NCBI GenBank assembly: GCA_026967815.1
Contig: JAPUUO010000001.1
Coordinates: 4,034 to 68,033 of the forward strand
DNA length: 64,000 nucleotides
Source of the DNA: Candidatus Bathyarchaeota archaeon
Lineage (GTDB): Archaea > Thermoproteota > Bathyarchaeia > Bathyarchaeales > Bathyarchaeaceae
Direction of reading: 5' to 3'
Numbering within the stretch: the first letter of the stretch is position 1; each line of letters begins with the position of its first letter. Positions 870 through 56,086 of the stretch are shown in pieces. The translations under genes were made by a program, and so were the position numbers. The notes beneath the pieces were generated by a model that worked only from the letters and a program-made list of their open reading frames with translations, did not search any database and was not told the DNA's origin.

Positions 870-1316
870 ATGATACAATGGAATGAACAAAACAGAAACA
901 GGATGAAGGCTCTGTATGCCAAATCCACGACCAAGGAAATCGCCGCAGAACTCGGCACGACCGAGAGGGCGATATACAAAGAGGCGAACAAGCTCGGATT
1001 GCACAAGAAGCAGCCTAACGCCATCGTCCTGACCGAGCAGCAGAAATCATGGCTGGTACGCAATTTCCCGCACGTCTCCAATGATGTGTGCGCCTCGATA
1101 CTCGGCATGAGCCTCCGCACGGTCGTGCGCAAGGCGCGGAGGCTGGGACTTGAAAAGACGGCACAGTTTCGTCACGAATGCTCGCTCTACGGCAGCAAAA
1201 GAGCCGTGGAAACACTCAGGCGTAGCGGCAAGCTGCCTCAGAAAGGCTACTACTCGCCCAACCTACAGAAAGGCGAGCCGTACCAGTTCAAACGCAAAAC
1301 AGCAGCTGGAGAATGA
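870..1316 (+). CDS. DNA-binding protein with two tandem HTH-like segments
   Basis: 148 aa. Contains TTKEIAAELGTTERAIYKEANKLGL and NDVCASILGMSLRTVVRKARRLGL. Its stop overlaps the next ATG (ATGA). Confidence 0.5.
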   Translation: MIQWNEQNRNRMKALYAKSTTKEIAAELGTTERAIYKEANKLGLHKKQPNAIVLTEQQKSWLVRNFPHVSNDVCASILGMSLRTVVRKARRLGLEKTAQFRHECSLYGSKRAVETLRRSGKLPQKGYYSPNLQKGEPYQFKRKTAAGE

Positions 1317-2167
1317 CCTACCTACAGCTCATCAACCGCTTCTGGGACGCAGACCGCGCGTCCCCTTTCTCGCCCTGCGAGACGAGGCTCTACATGCTTC
1401 TTCTCGATGCCGCCAACCGCAAAGGCTGGAACGCGGAGCTTCCGTACACCAAAGAGGAGCTTGCGGAACGTCTCGACGTAGCCGCCACTACGTTTCTAAG
1501 GGCGAGGAGACGGCTCTCCGAAGCAGGGCTTATTACTTATGCCGAGAACTGCGGAGGACGCAAAAAAAGGACAGTCTACACCATAGCCGACGCACCGAAA
1601 AAGGGTAGCATGGTGAAACCCTTTACAGCCGAAAAGGGTATCGAAAAGGGTATCAAAAATGATACAGTTTATGCTACCCTTTCCGAGCAAAAGGGTAGCG
1701 AAAAGGGTAGCATGGTGAAACCCTTTACACCTATAGATATAGATTTGTCATCATATAGACATAAAGACTATATAGTAGAAGAAAAAGAAAACTACTCAAA
1801 AGAAAAAATTCCGCACGGCATTTCCGCTTTCGCTCCCGAGGAAGAAATCTCGGATGTGGTCGCGCAGCTCAAAGACGAGGGCGCGTGGGGCGAATCGGTG
1901 TGCATGAAGTTCCGACTTTCCCCCGACAGTCTTACCGACCTCCTTGACGAGTACCGTCTCCACTGCATGACGATAGGGGAGGAGCGCAAGACCGTCAAAG
2001 ACGCCAAGCGGCATTTCACAAACTGGCTGCGTGCGAAAGCGCGGTCAGAAAAAACAGACCGACATGAAACAGACCGAAAAGATAACCGCAGTGCTGGACG
2101 CGATGAACGTGACGCAGCCTTCCGCAGCTATGTCATCAACAAGCTCTCAAACGGCGATGGTGGCTGA
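1313..2167 (+). CDS. Replication-initiator-like winged-helix protein (function inferred)
   Basis: 284 aa. The N-terminal segment EELAERLDVAATTFLRARRRLSEAGLI is wHTH-like. The central low-complexity linker (KKGSMVKPFTAEKGIEKGI..KGSEKGSMVKPFTP) is encoded by the iteron-like cluster, a lambda O-like arrangement. Confidence 0.4.
   Translation: MTYLQLINRFWDADRASPFSPCETRLYMLLLDAANRKGWNAELPYTKEELAERLDVAATTFLRARRRLSEAGLITYAENCGGRKKRTVYTIADAPKKGSMVKPFTAEKGIEKGIKNDTVYATLSEQKGSEKGSMVKPFTPIDIDLSSYRHKDYIVEEKENYSKEKIPHGISAFAPEEEISDVVAQLKDEGAWGESVCMKFRLSPDSLTDLLDEYRLHCMTIGEERKTVKDAKRHFTNWLRAKARSEKTDRHETDRKDNRSAGRDERDAAFRSYVINKLSNGDGG
1596..1729. repeat. Iteron-like cluster: six direct AAAGGGTA(G/T)C boxes, inverted copies, and a perfect 27-bp direct repeat (1601-1627 = 1703-1729)
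   Basis: Direct boxes read at 1596-1609, 1630-1642, 1642-1654, 1688-1699 and 1699-1711. An inverted box lies at 1673-1684. Each 27-mer contains the palindrome AAAGGGT..ACCCTTT. Confidence 0.8.
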
Positions 2168-2708
2168 ACGCTACGGCGACGCGATGCACTTCCTGTCGGT
2201 TTTCAATCCCGACATGCAGCTGCGCTACAGCACGGACAAGGACAGGTGCTTCCGTGGCAAAGCCCCCGAGCTTGGGCTTGTAAGCCGCACCTATGGAGCA
2301 GGCGTGGCCGAGTCGTGGCTCATGGGACAGCTCCACGAGCTTGGAGAATACACAGGAGTGCGCGACAAGCAGACCGACAGGCAGAAGGAGGACACGGCCA
2401 AGGTGATAATCGCCGAGTTCGGGCATCTCAAAGTTACCGAGATGATGTATTTCTTCGTTCTTCTCAAATCCGGGCGTTTCGGCAGGTTCTACGGCGCGGT
2501 GGATGCCATGGCCATCACTTCTGCGCTAAGGGAGTTCCTGAAAATACGTGATGCGGAACTTGACCGCATCATCCAAGCCGAGCAGCAGACGGAACATGAG
2601 CGCGAAACAGCTCTGCGGAAGCGCGAAGTTATGACCTACGAGGAGTATGAAGAACTTCGGTGGCTGTTCAACATGGGCTATGAGCCGCGCCACCTGCACC
2701 GCTATTGA
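2064..2708 (+). CDS. Hypothetical early protein
   Basis: Starts MKQTEK, the same N-terminal pattern as the next two genes (MTQTEK, MTEREK). An alternative start at 2157 would give only an 11-nt overlap with the upstream gene. Confidence 0.5.
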   Translation: MKQTEKITAVLDAMNVTQPSAAMSSTSSQTAMVAERYGDAMHFLSVFNPDMQLRYSTDKDRCFRGKAPELGLVSRTYGAGVAESWLMGQLHELGEYTGVRDKQTDRQKEDTAKVIIAEFGHLKVTEMMYFFVLLKSGRFGRFYGAVDAMAITSALREFLKIRDAELDRIIQAEQQTEHERETALRKREVMTYEEYEELRWLFNMGYEPRHLHRY

Positions 2709-2736
2709 CACACTCAACAAACACAATCCTACAGAT

Positions 2737-2961
2737 ATGACACAGACAGAAAAGACCGTATTAGACCCCGAGACGCTGCGCTGGTGGACCACCCCGAAGC
2801 GCGGTCCCCTCGGATGGGGATTCTCCCCCAGAGACGAATGGCTCGCAGCAAAAGCCATGAAAGCAGCCTCAGAGTTCATGCGAGGCTACGGCAAAGGGCG
2901 CGCTCATCGCATGATAGACAAATCACGTTACGAACAAGGCACAAACAACCAGCAGCCATGA
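2737..2961 (+). CDS. Hypothetical protein
   Basis: ATG at 2737 (MTQTEKTVLDPETLRWW..). Its stop overlaps the next ATG. Confidence 0.5.
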   Translation: MTQTEKTVLDPETLRWWTTPKRGPLGWGFSPRDEWLAAKAMKAASEFMRGYGKGRAHRMIDKSRYEQGTNNQQP

Positions 2962-3431
2962 CCGAAAGAGAGAAGATACAGCACCGCCTGTCCGTTCACC
3001 GCCTGGAACTCCGCGACCACATGCGCGGACGTGTGGCCGTCACCCCGAGAGCAAAGACACTGCTTGCAAAGATAGCCGAGGACGAAACAGCCCTGCGCGA
3101 GCTTGACCGCGAGGAAGCCGACCGTCTCGCACTCGCAGACGCGCCTGTCGACGATGTGCTGCAAGTGGTAATGATTCCGCTGCTGGCCGACGTGATGAAC
3201 GATGTCGTTGCAGGAGTCAACGGCATGCTCCGTAGGCGCGGATGCACCGAGACGGTCTTTGCGGACTACACCGCCGCATTGCAGAAAACGGCCTTGAAGA
3301 TGGTTGACACCCTCGCCGCCTCGGAGGCCGGGATGCCGAAGCTCCTCGATGTCGACGATACTCTCATAGATGCCGTCAAGAAGAAACTAATGTCATTTAT
3401 AAAACAACGTCTGAATATCACTAAATCGTAA
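2958..3431 (+). CDS. Hypothetical protein
   Basis: ATG at 2958 (MTEREKIQHRL..). Lies in the + operon. Confidence 0.55.
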   Translation: MTEREKIQHRLSVHRLELRDHMRGRVAVTPRAKTLLAKIAEDETALRELDREEADRLALADAPVDDVLQVVMIPLLADVMNDVVAGVNGMLRRRGCTETVFADYTAALQKTALKMVDTLAASEAGMPKLLDVDDTLIDAVKKKLMSFIKQRLNITKS

Positions 3432-3435
3432 GAAA

Positions 3436-3660
3436 ATGGATAAAAACGACCAAGAGAGCAATGTCTTGACATGCGATAAAGCAGAAGTGCTTAAATTCTA
3501 TGAGCATCTGCTGGGCGTGGTAGAAAAGCTGCGTATGAGTGAGCATTTCTCAGAGCTGTGCGAGCTTGAAAGTGAATATATCTCGCTATTTGGCGGAGAG
3601 GAAGCTTTCGGCTTGATGTTTTACTCCGAGTTTCACCCCGAAGAAACGAATGAACAATGA
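3436..3660 (+). CDS. Hypothetical acidic protein
   Basis: 74-aa ORF tightly packed in the operon. Confidence 0.5.
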   Translation: MDKNDQESNVLTCDKAEVLKFYEHLLGVVEKLRMSEHFSELCELESEYISLFGGEEAFGLMFYSEFHPEETNEQ

Positions 3661-3947
3661 CACCCGGACAAATCACAGACATAGCCCGCGAGTATGCGGA
3701 GTTTACCGACCTTTCCCCGGCGGACCAAAAGATTATCAGTGTGGTAAGTGAGAACTTCCTCCAATATATCATGTATCGCTACTGCCTCGTTGAGAAAGCC
3801 AAACTGATTGAGGAATACAAGTCTGCAAAACAGGACAACAAAATGGCACATAGAGAAAAGTTGTACTCCATGCTCGCAGTAGCAGAGGCGAGAAAGGCGT
3901 TGCTCGAATCTCTCTTTCCCGAAATAGCAAAGGAGGTGGAAGAATGA
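3657..3947 (+). CDS. Hypothetical protein
   Basis: 96-aa ORF with ATGA overlaps on both sides. Confidence 0.5.
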   Translation: MTPGQITDIAREYAEFTDLSPADQKIISVVSENFLQYIMYRYCLVEKAKLIEEYKSAKQDNKMAHREKLYSMLAVAEARKALLESLFPEIAKEVEE

Positions 3948-4105
3948 TAACGGAAACAATCTACGACCTTTCAGAGCTTCACCACGGCGTATGCGAGTGG
4001 TGCGGTGAAGAATCCGATGAGATAGTCAGCACCGAAGACGGAGAAAAGTGCATAGACTGCATCGAAGAAGAAAAGTTTTACCAAGAAACAATGAGAGGTC
4101 TATGA
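3944..4105 (+). CDS. Small zinc-ribbon-like protein (53 aa)
   Basis: Hand-translated as MITETIYDLSELHHGVCEWCGEESDEIVSTEDGEKCIDCIEEEKFYQETMRGL, with CxxC..CxxC. ATGA coupling to both neighbours. Below the ORF-track size cutoff. Confidence 0.5.
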   Translation: MITETIYDLSELHHGVCEWCGEESDEIVSTEDGEKCIDCIEEEKFYQETMRGL

Positions 4106-4746
4106 AGAAGATTCTTTTCAACGATAAATTCCAACTCACCCAAGCCGTGCTTGACGGTCGAAAGACACAGACAAGGAGGATAATCAATCCGCAGCCCGAA
4201 GTTTCAGAAAGAATGGGTATGGTTTGGAAAGGTTATGCTTATGGCATCACAAGCCCATACGGCTCGCCATGTTTCCTAAAAGACGTATATCACAACTTTC
4301 TTTCTGGGACAAATTACCCTCAATGTCGAAGATACAAGGTCGGCGAAGTGGTAGCCGTGGCGCAAAGCTACAATGATTGCGGATATGACGGCAATACTTA
4401 TCTTGGTGTTGAGGGTGGATGGGTCCCGTTTAGCGAAACAGCCGGATGGACTAATAAAATGTTCACATTGGCAGACCAAATGCAGCATTTCATCCGCATA
4501 ACCGATGTGAGGGTGGAACGACTCAACGACATATCGGAATCCGACTGCCTCGCTGAAGGTGTATTACATTCAGACAAATACGCAATGCCCTATGGCATCC
4601 CCGACAGAAAAGCACCTAACGGAGTTGACTTCTATTATTCCACTCCCCGTGAAGCCTACGCCGCTCTGATAGACAAGATTTCGGGCAAAGGAACCTTCGA
4701 GAGCAATCCCTATGTATTCGTTTACGAATTTGAATTAGTGAAGTGA
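4102..4746 (+). CDS. ASCH-domain-like protein
   Basis: Start MKKILFNDKFQLTQAVLDGRKTQTRR matches the typical ASCH N-terminal pattern. The ORF-track start at 4048 is probably too far upstream. Confidence 0.45.
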   Translation: MKKILFNDKFQLTQAVLDGRKTQTRRIINPQPEVSERMGMVWKGYAYGITSPYGSPCFLKDVYHNFLSGTNYPQCRRYKVGEVVAVAQSYNDCGYDGNTYLGVEGGWVPFSETAGWTNKMFTLADQMQHFIRITDVRVERLNDISESDCLAEGVLHSDKYAMPYGIPDRKAPNGVDFYYSTPREAYAALIDKISGKGTFESNPYVFVYEFELVK

Positions 4747-5561: not shown

Positions 5562-6362
5562 TTATTCTTTGAATTTCCATATATACTTTCCTCTAAATTT
5601 TTGCAAGCGAATTGAACGAGAGCGATTGGATGGAGCAGAGCCGTAGACTTCGCACACCGCTTTTAATGACGGCCATTCTTTTATGAAATTTCCCTCTTTG
5701 TCATATTGAAGAACTGCCTTAGCATTCGTATGTGTGGGCTTATTGTATTGGGCATTATCTAATTTCAAAAAACTCCAAATATACCCTCCAGCCGAATATG
5801 TGTGACCCAAACATACTCGCCCTATGGCAGTATTCTTTATACCAGTATGACGAGCTGCTTCTGCGGCACTTTCGTATTCAGCAATAAACTCTCCGTTCAT
5901 AGCATATTGGTAAACTTTTTTGGGAGCATTTGGAGTGTTTTTGATTATTTTAGTCGCATTGCTTCTATTGGCGACCTCCGAAATATATGTATTATCTCTG
6001 CAATGTTGCATTGTTAATACATTGTTGGCGTTCTCCTTAGGCGTAACCCATCGTAGATTTGACAATGAATAGTTGGTTACATCGGTGTCAATATGGTCTA
6101 TAAACGGTTTATTGTCGGGGTTGGGAATAAAGGCCAATGCAATTATACGATGTAGCGGAGTGACTCGACTCTTCCTGTTCTTACACAAAGTGACACAAGG
6201 ATAACCACCGGACCCGCTGTGGACTTCTTTTATGCGCCCTCTTACGTGGCGCATAGACTTACCTTGCGGAACATAACGCTCAACTGATTTAACTCGACCG
6301 AGATTGCTCACTTCATACAGCCCCTCATAACCTACTACTGGTTTCCAAATTTCTTGCTCCAT
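5562..6362 (-). CDS. NUMOD4/HNH homing endonuclease
   Basis: From ATG 6362: MEQEIWKPVVGYEGLYEVSNLGRVKS..HRIIALAFIPNPDNKPFIDHID..LRWVTPKENANN, with C-terminal GGYIWSF/GKYIWKF repeats. The gene is visibly AT-rich relative to its flanks. Confidence 0.85.
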   Translation of the reverse strand: MEQEIWKPVVGYEGLYEVSNLGRVKSVERYVPQGKSMRHVRGRIKEVHSGSGGYPCVTLCKNRKSRVTPLHRIIALAFIPNPDNKPFIDHIDTDVTNYSLSNLRWVTPKENANNVLTMQHCRDNTYISEVANRSNATKIIKNTPNAPKKVYQYAMNGEFIAEYESAAEAARHTGIKNTAIGRVCLGHTYSAGGYIWSFLKLDNAQYNKPTHTNAKAVLQYDKEGNFIKEWPSLKAVCEVYGSAPSNRSRSIRLQKFRGKYIWKFKE

Positions 6363-6430
6363 AATCTGTTTATTATTATATACAAAGATATAATCTTTGC
6401 GCCAAATAACCAAATTATTTGCAAGTTTTT

Positions 6431-6853
6431 TTAGAGCCAATCATCCCAATCTGCGCCTATGCCTTTTGCATCAAGGTCAACAAGAAAGTGGCGGAAAGCA
6501 TTGCCCCCTTTGAGGTCAGGGTCCCCTATCATATCGGCGACATACTGACACAATCCCTTTTCGTCAATGATGCTTGACTTGTAGAGGTCTGCCTTGGCTT
6601 GGTGGAAGTAATAGCAGAAGTCGTAGCCTACATTATCCTCAATCTTAATGCCATACTTCTGCAAAAGTTCCTCAATCTGCTCCTTCGGAACATATTCTAT
6701 ACGCTCCAGCTTGCCCGTAGCAGGATTTAGACGGCGCATCCCTTTGACTGCGGATTCAAGAGATTTTTTCGCAAAGTGATAGCCATACGAGCGCAAGTAC
6801 GCCCTCATTGACTCAGGAAGTTTCAATTCGTAGTTATCCAATGGTGTTGCCAT
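6431..6853 (-). CDS. Hypothetical protein
   Basis: 140-aa ORF with no recognisable motif. Confidence 0.5.
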   Translation of the reverse strand: MATPLDNYELKLPESMRAYLRSYGYHFAKKSLESAVKGMRRLNPATGKLERIEYVPKEQIEELLQKYGIKIEDNVGYDFCYYFHQAKADLYKSSIIDEKGLCQYVADMIGDPDLKGGNAFRHFLVDLDAKGIGADWDDWL

Positions 6854-6945: not shown

Positions 6946-7257
6946 TTATCGGCGATAGCGTGAGTATCGACCGGTTCCTCTGACACCACGGCGTTCGCCG
7001 AAGTCGTCGTCATCGTCCCAGCCGTCATCCTCGCGGTTGCCGTAACGGTTGCCGTAGTTACCGCCACCATTGCCGCCGGAATAGCCGCCGCCACGGTTTC
7101 CATAGCGGTTTCCGTAGCCTCCGCGCTCGCCCATCTGCGACTCCTCGGCAAGGTCTTCGATGCACTCATAAAGTTCCTTGCCGTATTTGAGGAGCTTCTT
7201 CGCCTTGTCTCTCAGCTCGTCTTTTTCCTCGGAGCTGATTTCAATTATATAGCCCAT
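6946..7257 (-). CDS. Gly/Arg/Tyr/Asn low-complexity (RGG-like) protein
   Basis: 103 aa. A helical acidic N-terminus is followed by GERGGYGNRYGNRGGGYSGGNGGGNYGNRYGNREDDGWDDDDDFGERRGVRGTGRYSRYRR. Confidence 0.55.
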   Translation of the reverse strand: MGYIIEISSEEKDELRDKAKKLLKYGKELYECIEDLAEESQMGERGGYGNRYGNRGGGYSGGNGGGNYGNRYGNREDDGWDDDDDFGERRGVRGTGRYSRYRR

Positions 7258-7259
7258 AT

Positions 7260-7799
7260 TTATTTTGTTTTAGAAGATTTGTTTCCGTCAGCATCGAGTT
7301 TTGCCAACACCTGTGCCATCATGTTCTTAAGCTCGGCATTGTCCGAAGCCATTGTAGCCATCTGATTCTTCATCGTGGCGATTTCCTGCTCGCGACGCTG
7401 GTTCTCGGCGTACTCAGGATTGAGCTGCATAAGTATCTCGTCATATTTGACAATCTTCTGCCGCTCCTCGTCCACGCGGTTGATGATGCCCACAGCTTCG
7501 TTTTTCAGAGTGGCGATTTCGGCGTTCATCGCATCGCGGCTCACGGTCACGAACACGTTGCCGTTGCTTACGTAGTTCGCGCTCTCCTTGTTTGCCGGAA
7601 GCTGCTGGAACTGACGCTGTGCGCCGCCGACATTGGCGAACACGTCAACTACCTGCTCCTGCATCTGCCCGAACTGCGGTGCTGTCGGGAACTTGTAGAC
7701 AGGCTGCGTTACCTGCGTGATGCTGCCGATTTCAATACGCGGCACACTCTCTTTATAGAGGATATAGATTGGTTGGTTTACTCTTGCTGACTGAAACAT
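7260..7799 (-). CDS. Hypothetical protein with C-terminal coiled coil
   Basis: ATG at 7799 (MFQSARVNQP..). The GTG at 7841 lies inside a perfect palindrome (7825-7848) and is unlikely to be the start. Confidence 0.5.
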   Translation of the reverse strand: MFQSARVNQPIYILYKESVPRIEIGSITQVTQPVYKFPTAPQFGQMQEQVVDVFANVGGAQRQFQQLPANKESANYVSNGNVFVTVSRDAMNAEIATLKNEAVGIINRVDEERQKIVKYDEILMQLNPEYAENQRREQEIATMKNQMATMASDNAELKNMMAQVLAKLDADGNKSSKTK

Positions 7800-7855
7800 A
7801 TCTTGGTTTGTGAATTGATAGAAGTGTGAGGGGAGTTTCACCCCTCACGGATTGT

Positions 7856-8341
7856 TTACTCTGTCGGCGTTGTCGCTGCCGCCCCTGCCGTGTTGGTGAA
7901 CTCCACGAAGCGTGCCACTCCGCGCCTCTTGTCTAGGTACAGAAGCCTCTCTGTTGTTCCCTGCACGTTCGCCCCGGTCACGTTATTGCCCTGCGAGTCC
8001 ACTACGGGCACCCTTGTAGAGGTCGAGCCTGTAGTAGCTCCCGTCGTCGAGGTCGTGGTGCTTCCACCCGGTATCGCGATATGGATAGGGAAGCCCTCGC
8101 CGCCTGTAGGCACGTCCGCATGGATAGTCAGCAGGATAAGACTCTCGCACGGCAATTCGCGGTACTCGCACGGATTGAAGCCGTAGACCACCTGCGAAGC
8201 GGTGGTGTCGAGCACAACGGAGTTGGTGCTGATTTTATATATGCCTCCTACGTCTATGCGTTTGAGGCGGCTGTGTGGCTGCTGCGGAATCACCCCCATA
8301 GGAGGCATCCACCAATACGGATTCATTGCGTTAGGATACAT
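7856..8341 (-). CDS. Hypothetical protein, Pro-rich N-terminus, Thr/Ser/Gly-rich patch
   Basis: 161-aa ORF. A possible beta-rich fibre-tip-like domain is a guess only. Confidence 0.45.
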   Translation of the reverse strand: MYPNAMNPYWWMPPMGVIPQQPHSRLKRIDVGGIYKISTNSVVLDTTASQVVYGFNPCEYRELPCESLILLTIHADVPTGGEGFPIHIAIPGGSTTTSTTGATTGSTSTRVPVVDSQGNNVTGANVQGTTERLLYLDKRRGVARFVEFTNTAGAAATTPTE

Positions 8342-8366
8342 AGCTAATCTTGTTTAGGGTTAAGAA

Positions 8367-8792
8367 TCAGCATCCGCATCCGTTAGCATAGGGGGCGACA
8401 CCGAAGCTGACGGGTTGTGAGTACGACACAGGCACAAGGTTGCTCATCGCAGGGATGTAGGGGATGTTCACAGTCGGGGGTTGTTTGCAGGCTATGTCGG
8501 AAAGCTGCTTGTAAATAGGAGCGAGTTCAGCCTGACGTTCCGAGCGGGCGGTGAGAGTGGCGATGATGCGGTCTTTCTCCGCAAGTTCACGGTCTTTGCG
8601 GCTGTCTTCGATGGCGTCGAGCTTCAGAAGCTCCTCCACGCCGGTACCCAGTTCCACAAGACGGCGAAGATACTTGCGCACCGTGTTGCGCGCTACGCCC
8701 GTCAGGTTGCTGATGCTTTTTGCTCCGGTGCCGCTGCCGTGACAGCGTAGCACCTGTCTTAGTTTGTTCATGCTTAGTCTTCGATTTGCCAT
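8367..8792 (-). CDS. IS21 IstA-N-terminus-like HTH DNA-binding protein with coiled coil (regulator or small-terminase candidate)
   Basis: MNKLRQVLRCHGSGTGAKSISNLTGVARNTVRKYLRRLVELG resembles Bacteroidota IstA N-terminal HTH. There is no DDE domain and no istB. A repeat array lies immediately upstream. Confidence 0.5.
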   Translation of the reverse strand: MANRRLSMNKLRQVLRCHGSGTGAKSISNLTGVARNTVRKYLRRLVELGTGVEELLKLDAIEDSRKDRELAEKDRIIATLTARSERQAELAPIYKQLSDIACKQPPTVNIPYIPAMSNLVPVSYSQPVSFGVAPYANGCGC

Positions 8793-8871
8793 CCATTATA
8801 TGTTTTATGTATTTTTAACATATAATATAGCCTCAAGACTCCTTTCCCGCAATCTTTTTTCCTCTTTTTCA

Positions 8872-8955
8872 GGGGGCAATTTCAATGAGCAGCACGGGGT
8901 CAATTTAGTTGGGTTTTAGGGGGGCAGTTTCTTTGACCACAACGGGGTTAATTTA
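8872..8955 (+). repeat. Four tandem ~24-bp units GGGG(G/T)(C/T)A(A/G)TTT (two 48-bp super-units)
   Basis: GGGGGCAATTTC 8872-8883, GGGGTCAATTTA 8896-8907, GGGGGGCAGTTTC 8919-8931, GGGGTTAATTTA 8944-8955. Spacing is 23-25 bp. Confidence 0.8.
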
Positions 8956-9011
8956 ACTGAGTTTTTCCAGTTTAGGTTTGGAAGAGTTAGACGGCTCAGA
9001 GGTTGCAGGGG

Positions 9012-9509
9012 CTATTTTACTGCCCGCTTCGGAGGCTCGTATTTCAGTCCGGTCAGTTTGTTGTTCGGCGGCTTGCGCCCGCGCTCGTCTTTGCAGTCAG
9101 TGCGCTCACAACGCCATTGTTTCAGATATTCAACGAGTGTGTTGAGGTAGCCGTTTTCTGCGGCGAGCCTCGCTATCTCGTCCTTGTCGGCATTGCGTCC
9201 GTGCTCGGAGTCTATCAGCTGTGAGGTGAGTTTGCGTATCTGCTCGGTCTTGCCGTCGAGAGCCTTGTTCTGCTCGGCTATCCGCTCGGCGTTGTCTTTC
9301 TCCATCTTGATATAGATGTCAAGGCTCTGCTGCTGGTGCGTTATCTGCATATGCAGCCTTTCAACCTCGGCCTTGTCGGCATCATGCTCGGCAAGCTCGG
9401 TCTCGGCATAGTCCTTGCGCTTTCGGTGGGGTAGGGCGAAGTGCATGATTATGTCCCCGACAAAACCGATGCCCAGCACGCTCAACACTATTGTCTGTAA
9501 TACTTCCAT
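9012..9509 (-). CDS. N-terminal-TMD coiled-coil protein (i-spanin-like or class-III-like holin)
   Basis: A TMD (VLQTIVLSVLGIGFVGDIIMHFAL) is followed by a long coiled coil and C-terminal Cys residues. Last gene of the lysis cluster. Confidence 0.4.
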   Translation of the reverse strand: MEVLQTIVLSVLGIGFVGDIIMHFALPHRKRKDYAETELAEHDADKAEVERLHMQITHQQQSLDIYIKMEKDNAERIAEQNKALDGKTEQIRKLTSQLIDSEHGRNADKDEIARLAAENGYLNTLVEYLKQWRCERTDCKDERGRKPPNNKLTGLKYEPPKRAVK

Positions 9510-9512
9510 CGC

Positions 9513-10067
9513 TTATTTCCTGAATTTCTTTATGACTAAACCTGTTGCAGCGACCGCAGCGACAATCACCGCAGCGGCCAGGCAGATTGCTGAGGCATCG
9601 GGCGGCTTGCTGACGGCGGTTGTCTCCTTGGCCTCGTCCTCGGTAGCCTCGTGGGTGGTGCGTCTCTCGGACATGACTGCTGACGAGTCGGCGGTCTCGG
9701 CGTGGTGAAGCTCCGCGCTGCCTTTGCCGGCGGTCAGGCTGTCGGCCTCGGCCATCATACGCGGCGCGTGTATGACCGCGCCTGACGGGAGGGTGACACT
9801 GTTGGCCACAAGCTGCATCTTCAAGTGCCGCATGGCCAGCGTCAGCCAGTTAATCACGCCGCTATCTGTGCGAGTGTAACGCACCACCGACGAGTCCACC
9901 GTCTGAGCTGCGCTGTCCCTTTCCGTGCGTTGTGTGTGCTTCTGAGAGGAACATCCCCCCAGGGTTATCATCAGCACCAACAGGATGATGATGACCGCCA
10001 CGCAGCCGCCCATCACGCGGTTCTGCGTCCGCTGCTCCCTCTCGATGTCAAATCTGTCTCGTGGCAT
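9513..10067 (-). CDS. Lipobox + C-terminal TMD protein (unimolecular-spanin-like architecture)
   Basis: Signal/lipobox VLMITLGGC-SS (possible start at M19) and C-terminal TMD ICLAAAVIVAAVAATGLVI-KKFRK. Lies directly downstream of the amidase. Confidence 0.45.
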   Translation of the reverse strand: MPRDRFDIEREQRTQNRVMGGCVAVIIILLVLMITLGGCSSQKHTQRTERDSAAQTVDSSVVRYTRTDSGVINWLTLAMRHLKMQLVANSVTLPSGAVIHAPRMMAEADSLTAGKGSAELHHAETADSSAVMSERRTTHEATEDEAKETTAVSKPPDASAICLAAAVIVAAVAATGLVIKKFRK

Positions 10068-10069
10068 GG

Positions 10070-10519
10070 TCAGATGTTTTTATATTCAGGTATAGCATCA
10101 AAGCAGGGGCATTCCTTGACACGTTCCCACGGGTCGATGATACCGTTGTGGTTGCGGTCCACGCTCGCAATGTCGCGGTGCCCGAGGATGCGGGCATGGG
10201 GATAGCGCATGCGAAGCTCGCGCAGCAGACGCACGAGGGCTTCCTTCTGTTGCGCCGTGCGGTTGTCTGTGCCGCGCCCCTTGCCGTCTATGCCGCCCAC
10301 GTATGCTATGTTTATGCTGTCTCCGTTGTGGCCTCTCACCCCGTTGCTTATCCTGTCCTCCGCGAGGGTGCATACGGTGTGTCCGTCACGTTCCACTATG
10401 TAGTGGTAGCCCGGGGCTTTCCACCCGAGCTGGGTGCGGTGGTAGCGGACGATGTCGTCCGCGCTCTGTGTCTGCGCCCCTGCGGTGCAGTGGACGACGA
10501 TGTTGTTGATCTTTCTCAT
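10070..10519 (-). CDS. N-acetylmuramoyl-L-alanine amidase (Amidase_2/PGRP-type endolysin)
   Basis: From ATG 10519: MRKINNIVVHCTAG..GYHYIVERDG..NIAYVGG..ILGHRD. The Gly/Arg-rich upstream extension in the ORF track is rejected. Confidence 0.8.
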   Translation of the reverse strand: MRKINNIVVHCTAGAQTQSADDIVRYHRTQLGWKAPGYHYIVERDGHTVCTLAEDRISNGVRGHNGDSINIAYVGGIDGKGRGTDNRTAQQKEALVRLLRELRMRYPHARILGHRDIASVDRNHNGIIDPWERVKECPCFDAIPEYKNI

Positions 10520-10581
10520 AAAATATGGTATGAATGGTGTTAATGCTATGCTGTCGGTCAGCGCGTCGCCGTATGAAAGGC

Positions 10582-10833
10582 TCACTCCGCGCCCTCCCCG
10601 GTGGCCGTGCCGCCGTTCGCGGCCTGTTCCTCGGCCTCCTGTGCCAGTCTGCGCTGTTCCTGTTCCCATGCCTCCACCTCGGAATCAGTGACCTCCGAGT
10701 AGTTGTCGGGCGAGTCCCCCTGCCCCAGATAGGCCGTCGTGGTGGCCGTGGAGAGGTCGCCGAGATATACGATGCGGTATCCGTCGGCTACTGTGAGTTT
10801 GCGCATGCCGTTTGCTGTTGTTGTCTGTTGCAT
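10582..10833 (-). CDS. Hypothetical protein
   Basis: 83-aa ORF between the tape measure and the amidase. No TMD. Confidence 0.45.
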   Translation of the reverse strand: MQQTTTANGMRKLTVADGYRIVYLGDLSTATTTAYLGQGDSPDNYSEVTDSEVEAWEQEQRRLAQEAEEQAANGGTATGEGAE

Positions 10834-10924
10834 GATTCGTTATTATGTATGTTAATATTCTTTTTGATTATATAATGCAAACTGATATTTAGTGTGTTGA
10901 GTAATCATATCTCATATCCCGCCA

Positions 10925-13900
10925 TCATGTCGTGTATCGCGAGTTGACAGCCCAGCTCCCCCCCCTCGTCGTCACCACCCTCCCCAGCAGGGTGTGTATC
11001 TCCGCTATGTGGTGCTCTATCCTCGGCAGACTGCTCAGGTGAGCGTTCGCCGTCTCCATCATCGGCGTGTAGTCTATAGTTCCAGTCACCCCTGCTCCTG
11101 TAGTCCCGGCCTCCATAAGCCGCCTGATAGCCCACACATTCTCGTTCACCATCGCCATGTAGTGCGTCTGCGTCGTCAGAGCTGCCGTGTTCGCGTTAAC
11201 CTCCTCGCTCGTCGCCGACCCTACGGACTTCGCTATTCCGCGTGCCTCCTCCGCATCGCCACGGCTCTGGTAGCCCCACTGCTCAGCCCACGCCATGATG
11301 GCGGCTCCGGCAGCGTTCGCGTCGCGAGCACCCTTGTCCGCCGTCTCCATCACCCTCTCCCAGAAGCCCCGGTCGTAGAAGTCCCCCTCCTCCATCCTGT
11401 CTATCATGTCGAACGTCGGCTTCAGCGCACGCTCCATGGCCCGCGCCATCAGCCCCTCAGTCACCATGTTCTCCACCATCTCCCTGAATTTCTTCCCCAT
11501 CGCATCCGCCGTGTTCCCGAACTCCCTGTAGGCCTCCACCCACGCTTTTGCAAAGTCCCTCGCCGTTGATGACAGGTCTGACCCTATCAGCTGCTCGGCC
11601 ACCTTTCCTTGCAGCTCCGCCAGCCTGTCCATCGTCTCGCGGTACGAGTTCTCGTAATCCCTCAGCTTATCCTCGTCCGTTTTCTTCCCCTTGCTCCGCT
11701 CGGCCTCTGCCTGTTTTCGGTACGCTTCGGCCTGAGCTTGTAAATTTTTCTGTTGGGCTTTGATGTTCCCCACCATTTCTGACCCGAACACACGCTCCAT
11801 TGCCTTTTCGAGCCGACCGTAAGCATACTCCAGCTCCTCCAGTATCCGCTCCTGACGCTCAATCTCTTTGTTTGCCTTGCGGACTTTTGACCCCGTGAGC
11901 CATGAGCCTATGGCAGAGAAAGCTGCTATCGCTCCACCGATTGCCAATAGCCACCAACAAGCCGCCTCGATAGCTATTGCAATAGCGAGTATGGTTGTCA
12001 TTATTGTTGCCGCATTGTTCAGCCCCGACACAAGTCCGTTTACAATATCGCCAAGTTCGCTATCTTCCGCAACACCCATCATGTCGGCGATTGTTTGTAT
12101 TGAGCTTGCCGCAGAGCTGAAAGCGTTTGCCATTGCATTGACGTTCTTTGATAGTTTGGCGATAGCTGCTTTTTGAGCGTCAATGGCGTCTGTGGTGTTC
12201 TGTTCCGCTTTGTTGACCTGTTCAACAGCCTTGTTGCGCTTTTCGGTAGCTTGCGTTACTTTGGTTGTGGCATCGTTAAGGGCAAGTTGAGCCGCAACCC
12301 CCTCGTCAGTATTCAGCTTTCCCTGAGCCTCCAAGTCAGTAACACGCTGCTGTGCTATCGCTTGCTCAGCTTTGGCGGTTTGAATTGCCATATTCAGACC
12401 GACCTCTTGCTGTGCGAACTCGGCTTTTACCCTTGCTTCTTCGGCTTCTGCTGTTCGGTAGTCCTTACGGGCTTTTGCATACTCCTTGAAGCTGTCGATT
12501 ATTCCCTCTATCGGGTTCCTCGTTTCTCTCTCCTCGTTTATCTTGTCAAGTTGCTCGACAAGCGATTTCAAGCCCTCCACATTCTCAGTGTCTTTGACCG
12601 TAGCTATCATCTCCTGCAAACGCTTCTTCATACGGTCAAGAGTCTGAGTGGAAACGCGGTCAAGATCTTGGAACACCTTTATATAATCGTCGCTTGACTT
12701 AAATTCGTCAACAGCGAGTTTAGCCAATTCCTGCGCCTGTTTGTCATAGGACAAAGACACAAGACGGTTACGCTCCTGTGGGTCACGCGTTTCCTTAATT
12801 ATCTTTGCACGTTTCTCGCTCTCTCGCCGTATAATCTCCGTGCGCTGCTCCTCATAGCTCTGCGCTTTTGCCAGCTCTTTCTGCCAATTTGATATATTGG
12901 TGGCCACCTCTTTTTGACCCTCCTGCGCTATCTTCTGCGCCGTGTCACGGTTCTTTTCAATGATGTCGTTCTGATACTTCTCGTATATGTCAGCAAGCAT
13001 CTTGTAGTCGATGCGCTGATTCGTCATGTCAAATACGGGTTCAAGGTCAATCACGACATCCTCCTTGCCACTCTTGAACACTTCCCGAATCTGCGCCACC
13101 GTGTCCTCAAACAGCTCCTCACCCGTAGAGCCGTAGATGCTCAACGACACACGGTTAGCCAACTCCACATCCCCCGTCTGACTAAGTATCTTCTCATAAA
13201 ACTCCTTCGCAGTCTTGGTGCGCGATATGCGGTCGGCAAGGCGTTTCAGCTCGGCTTCGATTTCTCTTTGTTGCTTGTCAATTGCGCTCTTGTCGCGCTT
13301 AAACCCAAGCTCAATAAGTATCTTGTCAGCGTTTTTGATGCCGAGGCGGTTGATTTCCTTGATAATGGCATCATACCATTTCTGCACGTCCTCGATGGTC
13401 TGCGGCACTTCAAATGCAGGGAGCTTGAATTTGTATTTGTCTGCCATTTTCTGCATATCGGCAAAAGATGATGCGAACAGTTTTTGAGTGTCTGCCAACG
13501 CTTTTGTCTGCCCCTCTTTTCTCAGCAAGTCGTCATACTCCTTGTTGATTTGCGCCATTTTGTTGGCAATGTCGTTGAGGATTTGCAGACGCGGGTCGGA
13601 TTGGCGAGTGCCACCACCAGACGTGCTTTTACCAAGAATTTCAGCCATTTTTGAATAAAATTCTTCAAGGTCTTTTGCATTCTCCAATTTATCTGCAATT
13701 TCCTTGTATGCCAATGAAATCACAGGGGTGGCGGCTAAAACTTTTGTAAGGTTTTCAACCTGTTTAGCATAATCCTTAGCGGTATCATTTATTTTCTTTC
13801 GATAGGCTTCCAGCCCCTCTGTTGCACCCATCATATTGCCCCTGACTTTATCGATAAGCCCCATGCTATTGGCAAGTTCCTCAAACTTACTGCGAACACT

Positions 13901-24320: not shown

Positions 24321-24331
24321 AATTGTATTTG

Positions 24332-24403
24332 TGGCGCGGGGCGGACTCGAACCGCCGACCTTAGCCTTATGAGGGCTACGAGCTACCGCTGCTCTACCGC
24401 GCT
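24332..24403 (-). tRNA. tRNA with CAT anticodon (Met; Ile2 or initiator-like not excluded)
   Basis: Hand-folded 72-nt cloverleaf: AGCGCGG-TA-GAGC-AGCGGTA-GCTC-G-TAGCC-CTCATAA-GGCTA-AGGTC-GGCGG-TTCGAGT-CCGCC-CCGCGCC-A. Position 1:72 is an A.C mismatch. No CCA is encoded. Confidence 0.8.
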
Positions 24404-24478: not shown

Positions 24479-24643
24479 TTACCTGTCAAGGCTGTACTTC
24501 CGCATGTCTATCGGTATCTCTTTACCGCATTTTTTACAAAACAGAAACACAATGCCCCGGCCTACAATATCTTCATATCTGCCGAGTAGTTTCGGCTTGC
24601 GTCCTAATTCCGCACATCTCGGACAATAAATATCACCCCTCAT
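24479..24643 (-). CDS. Zinc-ribbon micro-protein (54 aa)
   Basis: Hand-translated as MRGDIYCPRCAELGRKPKLLGRYEDIVGRGIVFLFCKKCGKEIPIDMRKYSLDR. ATGA overlap with the HNH stop. Confidence 0.55.
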   Translation of the reverse strand: MRGDIYCPRCAELGRKPKLLGRYEDIVGRGIVFLFCKKCGKEIPIDMRKYSLDR

Positions 24644-25281
24644 ATCTGCAATGAACTCACATCTTTAACATACATCCATTTATAACCTTTTGACTGCCTA
24701 AGGATGCCACGAGCAGCTGCGCTAATATTATTAACGCCGGTGACACGTGTTGCTTCTTTAACCGATGGGAACGACGCCAATATGTTGCCGTTCATGTCCA
24801 TTTGGTATACGGCTTTATCGTTATTAGGGAGTTTATGCGTTTTATGCACAGAATGCTTTTTGACATTTTTGCAAACCTTATGCGCATAACGTGCTGCATG
24901 AGCTGCCTTTCGTCTTGCATTTGCGCTACCATAGTTTACATTATATAAATGAGTACACCACTCTAAATTCTCAACAATGTTATTAGACTTGTTTTCATCC
25001 TTGTGGTTAATACATCTCAAACCATCAGGATTGGGAAGAAAAGCGAGCGCGATAAGACGATGAGTTCTGATTGATTTACCTTTGCCACCCCTGCTCAACC
25101 AGCAAAGTTTATATCCGTGTCCGTCGCTCCCTTGCGACAAAACCCGTTCAGGATAGCTTCTTGTATATCGGGTGCCTTTATGAAATTCGACCATATTTCG
25201 GGCAAGACTTTTCACCCTGCCAAGATTGCTTGCTTGGTAAAGTCCTTCATATCCGGGTATGTCACGCCATTCTTCGGTCAT
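24640..25281 (-). CDS. NUMOD4/HNH homing endonuclease adjacent to terL
   Basis: From ATG 25281: MTEEWRDIPGYEGLYQASNLGRVKS..HRLIALAFLPNPDGLRCINHKDENKSNNIVENLEW, with a C-terminal KGYKWMY repeat. Confidence 0.85.
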   Translation of the reverse strand: MTEEWRDIPGYEGLYQASNLGRVKSLARNMVEFHKGTRYTRSYPERVLSQGSDGHGYKLCWLSRGGKGKSIRTHRLIALAFLPNPDGLRCINHKDENKSNNIVENLEWCTHLYNVNYGSANARRKAAHAARYAHKVCKNVKKHSVHKTHKLPNNDKAVYQMDMNGNILASFPSVKEATRVTGVNNISAAARGILRQSKGYKWMYVKDVSSLQI

Positions 25282-25302
25282 ATTTGTAATTCTTTCTGCG
25301 TG

Positions 25303-25371
25303 CAAATATAATGTGTTTTTGTAGATTGCGCAAGAAAAACTATAAAATAACTTTAGATTTTATTATCTTTG
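25303..25371. promoter_or_regulatory. Divergent late-promoter region
   Basis: Minus-strand -7 box TATATTTG (25310-25303) faces the HNH gene. Plus-strand -7 box TATCTTTG (25364-25371) faces terL. The -33 elements are weak. Confidence 0.5.
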
Positions 25372-25440: not shown

Positions 25441-27207
25441 ATGGCGTTCAGATTACTCGACAAATCAATAGCGTTTCCGGCACTCTATCCAAGGGTAGAG
25501 CGCAAACTTGCTACGGTCAAAAGCAAGAGTAAAACGGTTGTGGGAGGATTTGAACTGCGCCATAAGATAGACTACATTCCGCAAGTTGGGCTTCAGGAGA
25601 ATGTATGCGCCTCGGAGTGCAATCTTGTGTTTATGTGCGGACAAGGCACATCGGGTAAGACATTTTCGATGTACCTTAAAGCTCTTTCGGGCGTAGATAA
25701 GCAGGATTTCAAGGCACGTCTTATCTCAGTCCGTGCATTGGACTCCAAAAAAGGCTCGTCGATTTTCACGGACGGCGTTAAGGTATGCGGAGGCTTTGCC
25801 GGATGTCAGGCAAGTTCATCTGATATTCCCTCGTTTGTATGGCCGCAATGGAACTCAAATCTCCAGCTCATACACTCGAACTTCAACTATGCCAACCCCG
25901 ACGAAAAGAAACTGTTTGAGGACTATGCCAAGAAAAATCAGGCTTCGCTCATAATGATTGACGAGGCAACCGAAATGAATCACTTCGGTATGTTCTCGTT
26001 CTGGTTCATGCGTAACCGCGATGATTCGGGCATGATTCCGCAGATGATACTCTCGTTCAACCCTCTGCATGAGCATTGGACTACGGAAATGTTGCGCGAC
26101 GCTGGCTATCTCGGAGCGGACTGGTATCTGCGCAGGGATATGATCGGAAAGATACGCTATTTCTATGTCAAGGGCGACACTCCGGCTGAAATCATTTGGG
26201 GCGACACACGCGAGGAAGTAGTGGAGAAAGCAAGTCCCCGAATATCGCAAGAGGACAGAGAGGCGGGACTGACCGAAGCTGATATGGTAAAATCGTTTAC
26301 CGTGTTCACGGGTACTGCCGCAGACAACCGCGAGCTTGTGAACGCCACGGGCGGTCAGTCAGTCGCAAACCTCCACGCTGTCGGTGGCACACAACGCGCC
26401 ATTGTCGGAGAGGCTTATTTCGGGCCGGTGGAGAACGAGGAAATTAACGTAAGCCGCTCTATGATTCATTCGTTGTGGGAAAATCCGATTGACAATAAGG
26501 ATGCCAACGTATATGCAACTATGGATATTTCCAAAGGCGGGGTAGATTCAGACGGCTGTCCCTGCATCATTTGGAAAGGCTTGCAGATTGTAGCCATTGA
26601 GTTTTTCTGTAAAAACTCCGATTCCGAGGAAACGCATCAGCTGGAGAATTTCATAAACGGCATACTCTTTCGCTACAACATACCGATTGCAAACTTCGCA
26701 TACGATGCAAACGGCATAGGTGGTCTGATTGAGGACTTCCTGAAAAAAGGCGCAAGAGGCATTAGCGGTCAGGGGAGAGTAGAGCAGGAATATGACGAAA
26801 ACGGTAATCAGGTAACGGTCGCCCGATACTTCAACCTCCGCTCACAGCTTCTCGGCAAGACCGAGATAATGCTGAAAAAGGGAGAAATATCAGTTGGCGT
26901 AAGCAAGGATCTTGTAATCCCTTACGGCAAGAAAGGACAACGACGCCGATTCATCGACGTGCTTTTCGATGAAATCAACGTCTTCATCACCACCGACCGC
27001 AACGGCAAAATCTACTACCGCAAGAAAGAGGAATACAAGGACAAATTCAAGTCCTCGCCTGACCTTATGGACGCTATTTCCTACCGGGCAATCTTTGAAC
27101 TCGACACCCGCGAGCGCAAGCAGCCCGCAAAAAGAGTACCCGACAACGCTTATTACAACTTGGTAAACCGTCCGCGCATAGTCAATCCGTGGCGAGGATT
27201 CCGATAA
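25441..27207 (+). CDS. terL: Terminase large subunit
   Basis: 588 aa. Walker A is MCGQGTSGKTF and Walker B is SLIMIDEATE. Followed by the portal gene. Confidence 0.85.
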   Translation: MAFRLLDKSIAFPALYPRVERKLATVKSKSKTVVGGFELRHKIDYIPQVGLQENVCASECNLVFMCGQGTSGKTFSMYLKALSGVDKQDFKARLISVRALDSKKGSSIFTDGVKVCGGFAGCQASSSDIPSFVWPQWNSNLQLIHSNFNYANPDEKKLFEDYAKKNQASLIMIDEATEMNHFGMFSFWFMRNRDDSGMIPQMILSFNPLHEHWTTEMLRDAGYLGADWYLRRDMIGKIRYFYVKGDTPAEIIWGDTREEVVEKASPRISQEDREAGLTEADMVKSFTVFTGTAADNRELVNATGGQSVANLHAVGGTQRAIVGEAYFGPVENEEINVSRSMIHSLWENPIDNKDANVYATMDISKGGVDSDGCPCIIWKGLQIVAIEFFCKNSDSEETHQLENFINGILFRYNIPIANFAYDANGIGGLIEDFLKKGARGISGQGRVEQEYDENGNQVTVARYFNLRSQLLGKTEIMLKKGEISVGVSKDLVIPYGKKGQRRRFIDVLFDEINVFITTDRNGKIYYRKKEEYKDKFKSSPDLMDAISYRAIFELDTRERKQPAKRVPDNAYYNLVNRPRIVNPWRGFR

Positions 27208-27222: not shown

Positions 27223-28896
27223 ATGAGAATTTCAGAGAGATTACAAAAACAGTTTTGGCGACGCAGGATAAATCCCGATGCCGTCGATAAGCATACGCCC
27301 GTTGGTGCGCAGTATTATCGAGAACCCGCCATGTCGTATGACGATGGCTGTTATATGCTGCTTACGCAAGAGGATTTCTGCCGCGAAAATGACCCATTGG
27401 CGCACGACATAAATAGCCGGTATATGAGTATGCGCCCTATTTATGAGGTGCGCAAAAAGCTGGATGCGGAGGGCAATGCCGTTCTTGACGAGGAGGGAAA
27501 GCCGATAAACGAATGGCATATTGTCGATTTTGAACCCGTGGAAACGGTGCGCTTCGGCTTGCAGAAGCGCATCAATACCTCAAAAGCGGCGTTTATGGCA
27601 GGTAACGGCTTTTGGGTGTGCCATGAGGACAAAGACCACGACCTCGGCGAAAAACTCAACTCATGGAAAGACAGCGCGGGGCTTGATACGGCTTGGCAGG
27701 AGTTGGTGAAGTCCTGCTACCTTACGGGCGATGGCGCGATTTATCAGTACGTCCATAACGGACAGTTACAATATGAGGTTTTCAGCTATCTCAAAGGAGA
27801 CATTCTGTTTCCAGACTATGACGAGAACCGCAACCCCGTACTTGCCCGTCTTTACACATTGCGCGGCAGACGCGCCGTGGATATTTTCACCACGGAACGT
27901 GTACAGACATGGATTGAGGGCGATAAGGTAAGCGAAAAGGATGCGTCGTGGTTCATGCGCTTTTCGGGGTGGTTTGCAAAAGGTCTTAAATGGGATTCAG
28001 CAAAAACGAGCGAAGACGGCTGGCGTTGTCTCTCCGACAACCCCACACAAACACCCGTAGGTATCAATCCATGTACCTATTTCAAAGTGCCGGACATTCC
28101 CTCAGGCATAGCCAATCAGGAAATCGGCACTCTTGAAAAAGCGTGTTCGTTTGTAGCAGACGGAGTACGTGCCAACTCACAGGCTCCGCTATTTGTCAAG
28201 GCAACCGACATCGACAATCTGCCGCGCACCGATTCGACGGGTAAGATTATCGGTGTGAAAGGCGCGGTAGAAGAGCTTAAAGCCGCAGATGCAAAGTTCT
28301 TGACACCTCCAAACCTCTCTGACATCGCAACCATAGACATAGCCAACAAACAGAGGTCTATCCGCGAGTCCACGATGAGCGTAGATATTACACCCGAAAT
28401 ATTCCGTGCGGCAGACCCTTCAAGCGCGGCAATCAAGTTATTGTTCACCGATACAATTATTTGGTGCAAGAACGAGTTTGTGCATCTTTATCCCTCGCTC
28501 GTCAGCCTCATAGATGTATTTAAGGCTCTTGTGGCAAAGATTGAGGGTAACGGTAAGATTGCGACCATGCGGACTTCGTGCGGTTGTGATTTTTGGATTC
28601 CGCAGAACGATAGCGAGGTGTTGAAGCGCGAACTTGACATGGTGGCATATCGTATCAAGTCGCGCAAATCCGCAATGTCTGACGCAGGGAACAGCCATGT
28701 AGAGGACTACGAGCAGATTATAAAAGAATGGAAAGAGGAACTTGACATCAAGGCCCGAATCCCGGCTGTCGCGAAAGCGGAGGTGCAAGAGAAATACGGC
28801 GAACCGCAGGAAACAATCGAAGTCGAAGAGGAAGATAATGACAACAAACCCAAAATTGACAACTCCGCAAAGGGCAAGTCAATAACGGAAGGCTAA
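27223..28896 (+). CDS. Portal protein
   Basis: 557 aa, immediately after terL. The acidic C-terminus is typical of portals. Confidence 0.7.
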   Translation: MRISERLQKQFWRRRINPDAVDKHTPVGAQYYREPAMSYDDGCYMLLTQEDFCRENDPLAHDINSRYMSMRPIYEVRKKLDAEGNAVLDEEGKPINEWHIVDFEPVETVRFGLQKRINTSKAAFMAGNGFWVCHEDKDHDLGEKLNSWKDSAGLDTAWQELVKSCYLTGDGAIYQYVHNGQLQYEVFSYLKGDILFPDYDENRNPVLARLYTLRGRRAVDIFTTERVQTWIEGDKVSEKDASWFMRFSGWFAKGLKWDSAKTSEDGWRCLSDNPTQTPVGINPCTYFKVPDIPSGIANQEIGTLEKACSFVADGVRANSQAPLFVKATDIDNLPRTDSTGKIIGVKGAVEELKAADAKFLTPPNLSDIATIDIANKQRSIRESTMSVDITPEIFRAADPSSAAIKLLFTDTIIWCKNEFVHLYPSLVSLIDVFKALVAKIEGNGKIATMRTSCGCDFWIPQNDSEVLKRELDMVAYRIKSRKSAMSDAGNSHVEDYEQIIKEWKEELDIKARIPAVAKAEVQEKYGEPQETIEVEEEDNDNKPKIDNSAKGKSITEG

Positions 28897-55975: not shown

Positions 55976-55978
55976 ATC

Positions 55979-56037
55979 GGCTCTTTTGGCTCTTGGTTCA
56001 TACCGCAAAGTTAAAGCGACATTGCGGATTATCCAAA
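55979..56037 (-). promoter_or_regulatory. Canonical early-left promoter followed by AGAGCC doublet (copy 6)
   Basis: Minus strand reads TTTG (56037-56034) - N20 - TAACTTTG (56013-56006) - 12 nt - AGAGCC AAA AGAGCC (55993-55979) GAT ATG. Confidence 0.6.
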
Positions 56038-56086
56038 TAAACCTATAATGTAGGTTTAAGTTTCGAGAGAGCCGAAAAAGACGTGA

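Follow-up and report, generated by a model that had tools for sequence, protein, structure and literature searches.

The locus lies in a temperate phage represented by the 64,000-nucleotide stretch of DNA that was analyzed (hereafter the window), which carries an integrase gene (61792-63027), a large terminase gene (25441-27207), a portal protein gene and a gene for a 1,879-aa tape measure protein. Amidase and spanin-like lysis genes, the latter at 9012-9509, sit just upstream of the locus. The locus itself is read on the minus strand and consists of four short tandem repeats (8872-8955), a leader region (8793..8871) and an open reading frame of 141 aa (8367-8792). Between the stop codon of the spanin-like ORF and the beginning of this arrangement is a short intergenic stretch of phage DNA (8970..9011, minus strand).

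The phage has several other features that were recorded along with the locus. At least three genes of the HNH/NUMOD homing-endonuclease type are present (5562-6440, 24640-25305 and 28893-29684, all on the minus strand), and an apparent fourth (1-240) is cut off by the start of the window. A tRNA-Met gene (24331-24403, minus strand) lies between the head genes and an HNH gene, and a single ORF of 2,884 aa (31070-39724, plus strand) fills 8.6 kb. The tetranucleotides GATC and CTAG occur only 15 times and twice, respectively, in positions 1-64000, where base composition predicts about 250 copies of each and where the other 4-bp palindromes have 97-362 copies each. The scarcity of GATC looks like strong avoidance of GATC-specific restriction, and that of CTAG looks like the depletion that is common for this tetranucleotide. 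A search of GenBank phages with the 6-kb neighborhood of the locus returned one weak match and no others.

The N-terminus of the 141-aa ORF gave weak Pfam matches to HTH_7 and HTH_IclR (E of about 2e-4). The ORF scored 20 bits against the NCBIfam model for IS21 transposases (NF033546, cut-off 160), had no rve domain, and matched a PHROG annotated as transposase at E 0.004. In a single-sequence AlphaFold model, the protein was predicted to form short helices at residues 8-17 and 32-47 and a long helix at residues 52-102, followed by a disordered tail; the pLDDT was 88-95 across residues 61-90. The combination of an N-terminal HTH, a long helix and a flexible tail is superficially like that of small terminases, and there is no obvious terS beside terL at 25441-27207, both of which favor the proposal that the protein is a small terminase (TerS) and the four repeats are its pac-site array. 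However, no terminase small-subunit family was present among the PHROG or Pfam matches of the protein.

When a large protein collection was searched with the 141-aa protein, 52 relatives were found, and their alignment splits into two groups, one for each half of the query. For residues 1-59 (MANRRLSMNKLRQVLRCHGSGTGAKSISNLTGVARNTVRKYLRRLVELGTGVEELLKLD), the matches, at 92-96% within the aligned part, are proteins that continue as IS21 IstA (...HLEHKAGDKMYVDYAGD...). Residues 57-141 (KLDAIEDSRKDRELAEKDR...CGC) match the C-termini of phage proteins with long unrelated N-termini that are Gly-rich/hydrophobic and Cys-rich. These phage proteins belong to the family phrog_16490 (E 5.6e-57), and an intact 321-aa homolog in a sister phage from IMG/VR (contig L011) shares the final residues of the ORF, ...VNIPYIPAMSNLVPVSYSQPVSFGVAPYANGCGC. 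As these alignments show, the 141-aa ORF is a chimera of IstA residues 1-59 and the last 82 residues of a phrog_16490 protein. Its N-terminal part (8616..8792, minus strand) comprises istA codons 1-59, encoding HTH-1 and a linker, and is identical to residues 1-59 of the IstA of the intact element on contig L093 described below, while protein alignment assigns its C-terminal part (8367..8615, minus strand) to the last 82 codons, plus stop codon, of the phrog_16490 gene. A sequence-only reading of this DNA had described a protein in which an HTH resembling the N-terminus of IS21 transposases continues into a coiled coil in place of a DDE domain. The resemblance of the HTH is explained by its identity with IstA, and the long helix is supported by the model, but what looks like a new domain architecture results from the fusion of the HTH to the 3′ portion of a phage gene.

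The 82 C-terminal residues of the fusion ORF place it with the phrog_16490 proteins, and the downstream order of genes (161, 193, 103 and 140 aa) matches that of L011 and of another contig, L009. Unlike those proteins, the fusion ORF is missing about 218 N-terminal residues and has IstA 1-59 in their place. The phrog_16490 gene is also a mosaic. When window positions 8367-8625 were compared with L009 6450-6565 and L011 5886-6008, the helical segment in the window resembled the allele of the L009/P0029 type (77.6% nucleotide identity), and the last ~30 codons were of the L011/P0041 type.

The DNA upstream of the ORF was found to belong to the same insertion sequence (IS) as the HTH. A fragment of 358 nt (8612..8969, minus strand) contains the outer tip, the terminal repeats, the istA leader and istA codons 1-59 of an IS21-family left end, and its outer terminus is 5′-TGGAAAAACTC at position 8969. 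The four repeats, all on the minus strand, are TAAATTAACCCC (8944..8955, offset 14 from the IS tip, 17.7 bits on the matrix described below), GAAACTGCCCCC (8920..8931, offset 38, 21.2 bits), TAAATTGACCCC (8896..8907, offset 62, 18.9 bits) and GAAATTGCCCCC (8872..8883, offset 86, 21.4 bits). The four tandem units that had been noticed upstream of the ORF are present as described, and their spacing is exact, with matches to the consensus GGGGNNANTTT starting at 8872, 8896, 8920 and 8944, precisely 24 bp apart. Tandem Repeats Finder reported the same array as two 48-bp units (8872-8965, 78% matches), each of which contains two sub-units. In the whole window, GGGGNNANTTT has only six matches, five of which are inside 8872-9018.

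Metagenome contigs were scanned with the 33 nt that start at TGGAAAAACTC, and one contig, L093, was found. No exact match to this 33-nt tip was found in IMG/VR, and no GenBank phage matched the full IS. A full-length element of 2,674 bp (10784 to 8111), with istA followed by istB, lies on L093, which as a metagenome contig may come from another host strain. Its 520-aa IstA scored 216.4 bits on NF033546 (cut-off 160) and its 246-aa IstB scored 237.2 bits on NF038214 (cut-off 200). The Pfam domains rve and Mu-transpos_C_2 were present in IstA, and IstB_IS21 was also found. The L093 IstA aligned with the structures of IS5376 IstA (PDB 8b4h/8q4d; E 3e-9), including the HTH-1 region. The left end of the L093 element begins with TGGAAAAACTCAG, followed by four repeats of the form AAAnTGnCCCC, and the right end contains two inverted copies of the repeat and terminates in ...GGGAATTTCCA. 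The sequences that flank the element, where a target-site duplication would lie, are GTTAT and GTTAA, which match at 4 of 5 positions; in the window, a single end survives for such a comparison.

Comparison with this element demonstrated the origin of the fragment. In alignments over 358 nt, the fragment shares 99.7% identity with both the L093 IS (10427-10784) and a remnant in a related prophage (L001), and the base-by-base comparison with L093 gave 100% identity across offsets 0-354 (355 nt), a stretch that includes the left end together with the part encoding the HTH. The identity of the window with L001, L093 and a short metagenome contig (L002) begins exactly at the terminal TGG. A decayed IS21 end had been listed among the possible readings of the locus, with an intact copy that has identical ends named as the finding that would mark it as plain IS debris, and L093, a metagenome contig, contains such an intact IS21-family copy.

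The L093 relative resembles the known members of the IS21 family (IS21, IS5376) in having istA and then istB, both above the NCBIfam cut-offs, in having 5′-TG...CA-3′ ends with terminal inverted repeats that are built from several short direct repeats, and in its N-terminal HTH motif ...ARNTVRKYL, which aligns with HTH-1 of IS5376 IstA. The locus in the window differs from them in that it keeps just 358 nt, the left end and 59 istA codons. The terminus of the TG...CA type with its multi-repeat inverted repeat is present in the window at the left end only; the right end (two inverted repeats, ...TTTCCA) was found in L093 and in an IS copy from a Bacteroidales genome (L014), and is missing from the window. 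The lack of istB that had been noticed in the original reading was confirmed by a blastn search of the window with the full intact IS, which matched the 358-bp piece at 8612-8969 and nothing else. Because the fusion ORF reaches only 20 bits on NF033546 and has no rve domain, the window holds a fragment of an IS21-family member and not an autonomous member. The fragment is incapable of transposition because it has a single end, no DDE domain and no IstB.

As a hallmark of the family, the terminal inverted repeats of IS21-family elements consist of multiple repeats (L1/L2 and R1/R2) that are engaged by two tandem N-terminal HTH domains of IstA (PMC10122671). The likeness of the array to these terminal repeats had been pointed out before, and it holds in that the offsets of 14, 38, 62 and 86 from the tip are common to five copies of the IS clade (L093, L008, L014, L015 and L016) that are only 76-92% identical and whose spacers vary. 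The array of four repeats at 24-bp intervals is the multi-repeat left terminal inverted repeat of the IS, the part of an intact element to which IstA binds with its tandem N-terminal HTH domains. The prototypes of the family are drawn with L1 and L2 (PMC10122671), whereas the present clade has four left-end repeats with strict 24-bp spacing. An iteron origin, suggested by phased repeats beside an AT-rich stretch, was also considered and rejected; the whole block is IS sequence and is absent from the sister phage.

The region between the array and the ORF (8793..8871, minus strand) consists of the istA 5′ leader and the presumed promoter region of the IS, and contains a conserved inverted repeat (8795-8804 and 8817-8826) whose 10-nt arms are 100% complementary. 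A scan of 8300-9100 for promoters of the sigma-70 style gave nothing informative on the minus strand, with a tool that omits Bacteroidota promoters. The leader has a hairpin (8788-8832, minus strand) that is conserved across five relatives of the IS, among which one A-U/G-C change is compensatory, and in an outer helix GCUAU is paired with AUGGC, which includes the istA start codon. From the comparison of these five sequences, the hairpin may serve in translational control of the transposase.

Other copies of the IS place it in Bacteroidales. Across 2.7 kb, the L093 element has 78% identity with IS copies in Bacteroidales genomes (L014), where istB is also present. In a collection with one genome per species, the closest copies have about 76% protein identity and are found in Paramuribaculum, Duncaniella and other Bacteroidales; the phage hosts are therefore probably bacteria like these. 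The related prophage in L001 (GCA_964017925.1, a 535-kb contig) has a separate left-end remnant of 489 bp at 5803-6290, a different site, which encodes a truncated IstA of 123 aa (P0006). This remnant shows that the IS repeatedly strikes these prophages, and is no proof that such a remnant is useful. The L001 prophage also has a different gene order, as its positions 7210-12372 correspond to window 877-4746 (98%) followed directly by the reverse complement of 55096-53842 (99.5%). Since these two segments adjoin in L001, a block of about 50 kb (4747-55096) is inverted or differently placed in either the window phage or the L001 phage.

The sister phage in L011 is 87-99% identical to the window in both flanks of the locus and has no IS there. 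In L011 the spanin-like ORF is followed by a 98-aa gene with a DnaA_C-like HTH and then by the 321-aa phrog_16490 gene, both of which are intact; in the window, the 98-aa HTH gene and the intact phrog_16490 gene are both lost. The intergenic DNA at 8970..9011 aligns with L011 from 4489 to ~4528. The similarity of this flank extends about 40 bp beyond the spanin-like stop codon and breaks off precisely where the IS begins; the IS therefore inserted into that intergenic spacer. The sister phage also bears on the terminase proposal. The HTH and the array are IS21 sequence that came with the IS and is absent from L011, which would then lack both terS and a pac site, and the long helix comes from a 321-aa phage protein of another family (phrog_16490). 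With these results, the probability that the protein is a small terminase acting on a pac-site array is negligible.

The other junction (8612..8625, minus strand) lies in a microhomology between the IS (GAAGCTCGACGACA) and the phage alleles (GAAGCTCGATGCA and CAAGCTTGACGCA). The shared sequence, AAGCTCGAyG (GAAGCTCGAyG), encodes Lys-Leu-Asp in both the IS (IstA K57-L58-D59) and the phage gene. Copies of the IS break assemblies; five short metagenome contigs (L002-L006) have the exact IS tip as their first position, as a multi-copy element would be expected to produce, and two others (L008 and L007) end within the IS. This behavior raises the question of whether the assembler created the IS/phage junction by falsely joining sequences at a repeat. 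However, both junctions (8969/8970 and ~8612) are reproduced in an independent ENA contig, L094, with a nominal coverage of 230x and from 6 samples, and the microhomology of ~10 nt at the inner junction is too short for a k-mer join. L094 differs from the window by one SNP in 6.4 kb, at position 8614, in the junction codon. Because the same junctions are found in an independent contig, the structure is real and not a misassembly, and the lineage persists; an assembly artifact is highly improbable.

The locus is almost certainly the leftover left end of an ordinary IS21-family IS, fused by a deletion to the tail of a phage gene. The identities, the boundaries, the absence of the IS from the sister phage and the microhomology are seen directly, and we infer from them an order in which insertion preceded deletion. 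A 2,674-bp IS21-family element would have inserted into a temperate phage or prophage of Bacteroidales, in the intergenic region between the spanin-like gene, which ended about 40 bp upstream of the insertion point, and the small DnaA_C-like HTH gene. A later illegitimate deletion would have joined istA codons 57-59 to about codon 219 of the phrog_16490 gene through the Lys-Leu-Asp stretch. From the IS this deletion would have taken ~2.3 kb, comprising the remainder of istA, the whole of istB and the right end, and from the phage ~1.2 kb, comprising the 98-aa HTH gene and the leading two-thirds of the phrog_16490 gene. The window retains 358 nt of the IS left end and, as an accidental product, a 141-aa fusion ORF, and the in-frame fusion is automatic because the microhomology encodes Lys-Leu-Asp in both genes. 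The event is recent, and selection has not yet acted on it, because the fragment is still 100% identical to the intact IS. As a guess, packaging size may have selected for the deletion.

The sequence-only reading had connected the array with a region near 56 kb, in which the same core was said to recur three times. Three copies of GGGGTCAA are indeed found there, at 56089-56096 (minus strand), 56493-56500 (plus strand) and 56565-56572 (minus strand), but they do not carry the array motif. None of the three fits the array consensus GGGGNNANTTT, and on a position weight matrix built from 20 IS repeats, whose weakest training site scored 12.3 bits, they scored 6.7, 5.7 and 0.5 bits compared to 17.7-21.4 bits for the array sites. 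Two of the three belong to a separate 17-nt phage repeat, ATTTTGACCCCTATTTT. The matrix does not recover an operator motif common to 8.9 kb and 56 kb, and the proposal that the protein is a master regulator or repressor of the phage loses its basis with these sites. Regulatory logic common to the array and the 56-kb region is not expected because the array came with the IS, and none was seen. The sole further site in the window with the score of a true repeat (position 112, 13.2 bits) was rejected as an IS site; it lies in a coding region of the HNH/NUMOD type and has no IS context.

The 56-kb copies of GGGGTCAA are part of a larger set. The window contains 11 copies, which are scattered and mostly coding, compared to 1.5 expected from shuffles and 2.2 from an order-3 Markov model. 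This excess may be approximately a chance extreme among ~33,000 8-mers, and other 8-mers are equally enriched. Copies are located, for example, at 11887, 16933, 21566, 25398, 30529, 31267 and 33905, and every GGGGTCA is followed by A. Another 8-mer, TGTCGGGG, has 13 copies (2.2 expected), for example at 1921, 4599, 6113, 9455 and 12023. The copies of both GGGGTCAA and TGTCGGGG are mostly coding and have no common flanks.

The 56-kb region itself (56009-57356) is 1.35 kb of non-coding DNA between a divergent methyltransferase gene (55169-56008, minus strand) and an ORF at 57357-57995 (plus strand). It contains ATTTTGACCCCTATTTT at 56086 and 56562, a degenerate third copy at 56574, and several AT-rich palindromes, and three exact copies of AATTCAAATTAAGTT (57287-57356) immediately precede the ORF at 57357. 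The phage itself probably uses this region for control or as an origin. When IMG/VR was scanned for the 17-mer, 13 single matches were obtained, none of them in the L011 contig.

Truncated transposases that keep the N-terminal DNA-binding part inhibit transposition, as exemplified by Tn5 Inh and IS1 InsA. The fusion protein resembles such regulators in that it has a transposase HTH, has no catalytic domain and adjoins its cognate sites, and it could be viewed as a domesticated transposase DNA-binding domain that is made from the istA promoter and binds the four repeats. Such a protein could repress its own synthesis, act in trans as a dominant-negative inhibitor of intact IS copies, or regulate phage genes. 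In agreement with this, the ORF has an intact, in-frame coding sequence that is still preceded by the native istA leader and uses the native start codon, the model gives its long helix high confidence, persistence of the chimera is seen in at least two assemblies and 6 samples, and the second phage-borne remnant, in L001, also retains the left end and the IstA N-terminus. However, the fusion differs from Tn5 Inh and IS1 InsA in that it arose from a random microhomology deletion and retains half of a bipartite HTH unit. Only HTH-1 and the linker are left, and HTH-2, the other half of the bipartite DNA-binding unit (PMC10122671), is lost. The reading frame, which follows automatically from the Lys-Leu-Asp microhomology, and the 100% identity with the intact IS, which points to a recent event, give no signal of selection. 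In the window outside the array, only the site at position 112 reaches the score of a true repeat, and the 56-kb sites fail. The sole other truncated relative whose context was checked (P0007 in L108), a candidate for a third phage-borne truncated IstA, proved to be a frameshifted, decayed IS21 beside conjugation-type genes and is not in a phage.

Domestication of the fusion protein is, on balance, very unlikely. It is equally doubtful that the IstA(1-59)-phage helix fusion binds the four repeats and the ends of intact IS copies, as an inhibitor or titrator or as part of a promoter/operator module. If it did, the prophage would carry a trans-acting inhibitor or titrator of IS21 transposition, or, alternatively, an IS-derived promoter/operator module would control the downstream phage genes at 7856-8341 and beyond, and the two prophages that keep the IstA N-terminus with the left end would represent early domestication and not debris. 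Returning to the reading of the locus as the leftover left end of an IS, we infer that neither the fusion protein nor the array has a role in the phage.

The element is of a kind that is already known, namely ordinary IS debris, and its identification matters first for annotation. Neither regulator, nor small terminase, nor new HTH/coiled-coil family is an appropriate annotation for the ORF, and pac site, iteron origin and operator set are likewise unsuitable labels for the array. The locus also provides a clean and datable case in which an IS entered a temperate phage and was trimmed by a microhomology deletion that removed two phage genes. The end structure of the Muribaculaceae-type IS21 clade is documented as well, with four repeats at the left end, two at the right end and 24-bp phasing. 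As for the phage, its lineage has persisted in gut samples without the 98-aa DnaA_C-like gene and without the full-length phrog_16490 protein, both of which are thus dispensable in at least this respect.
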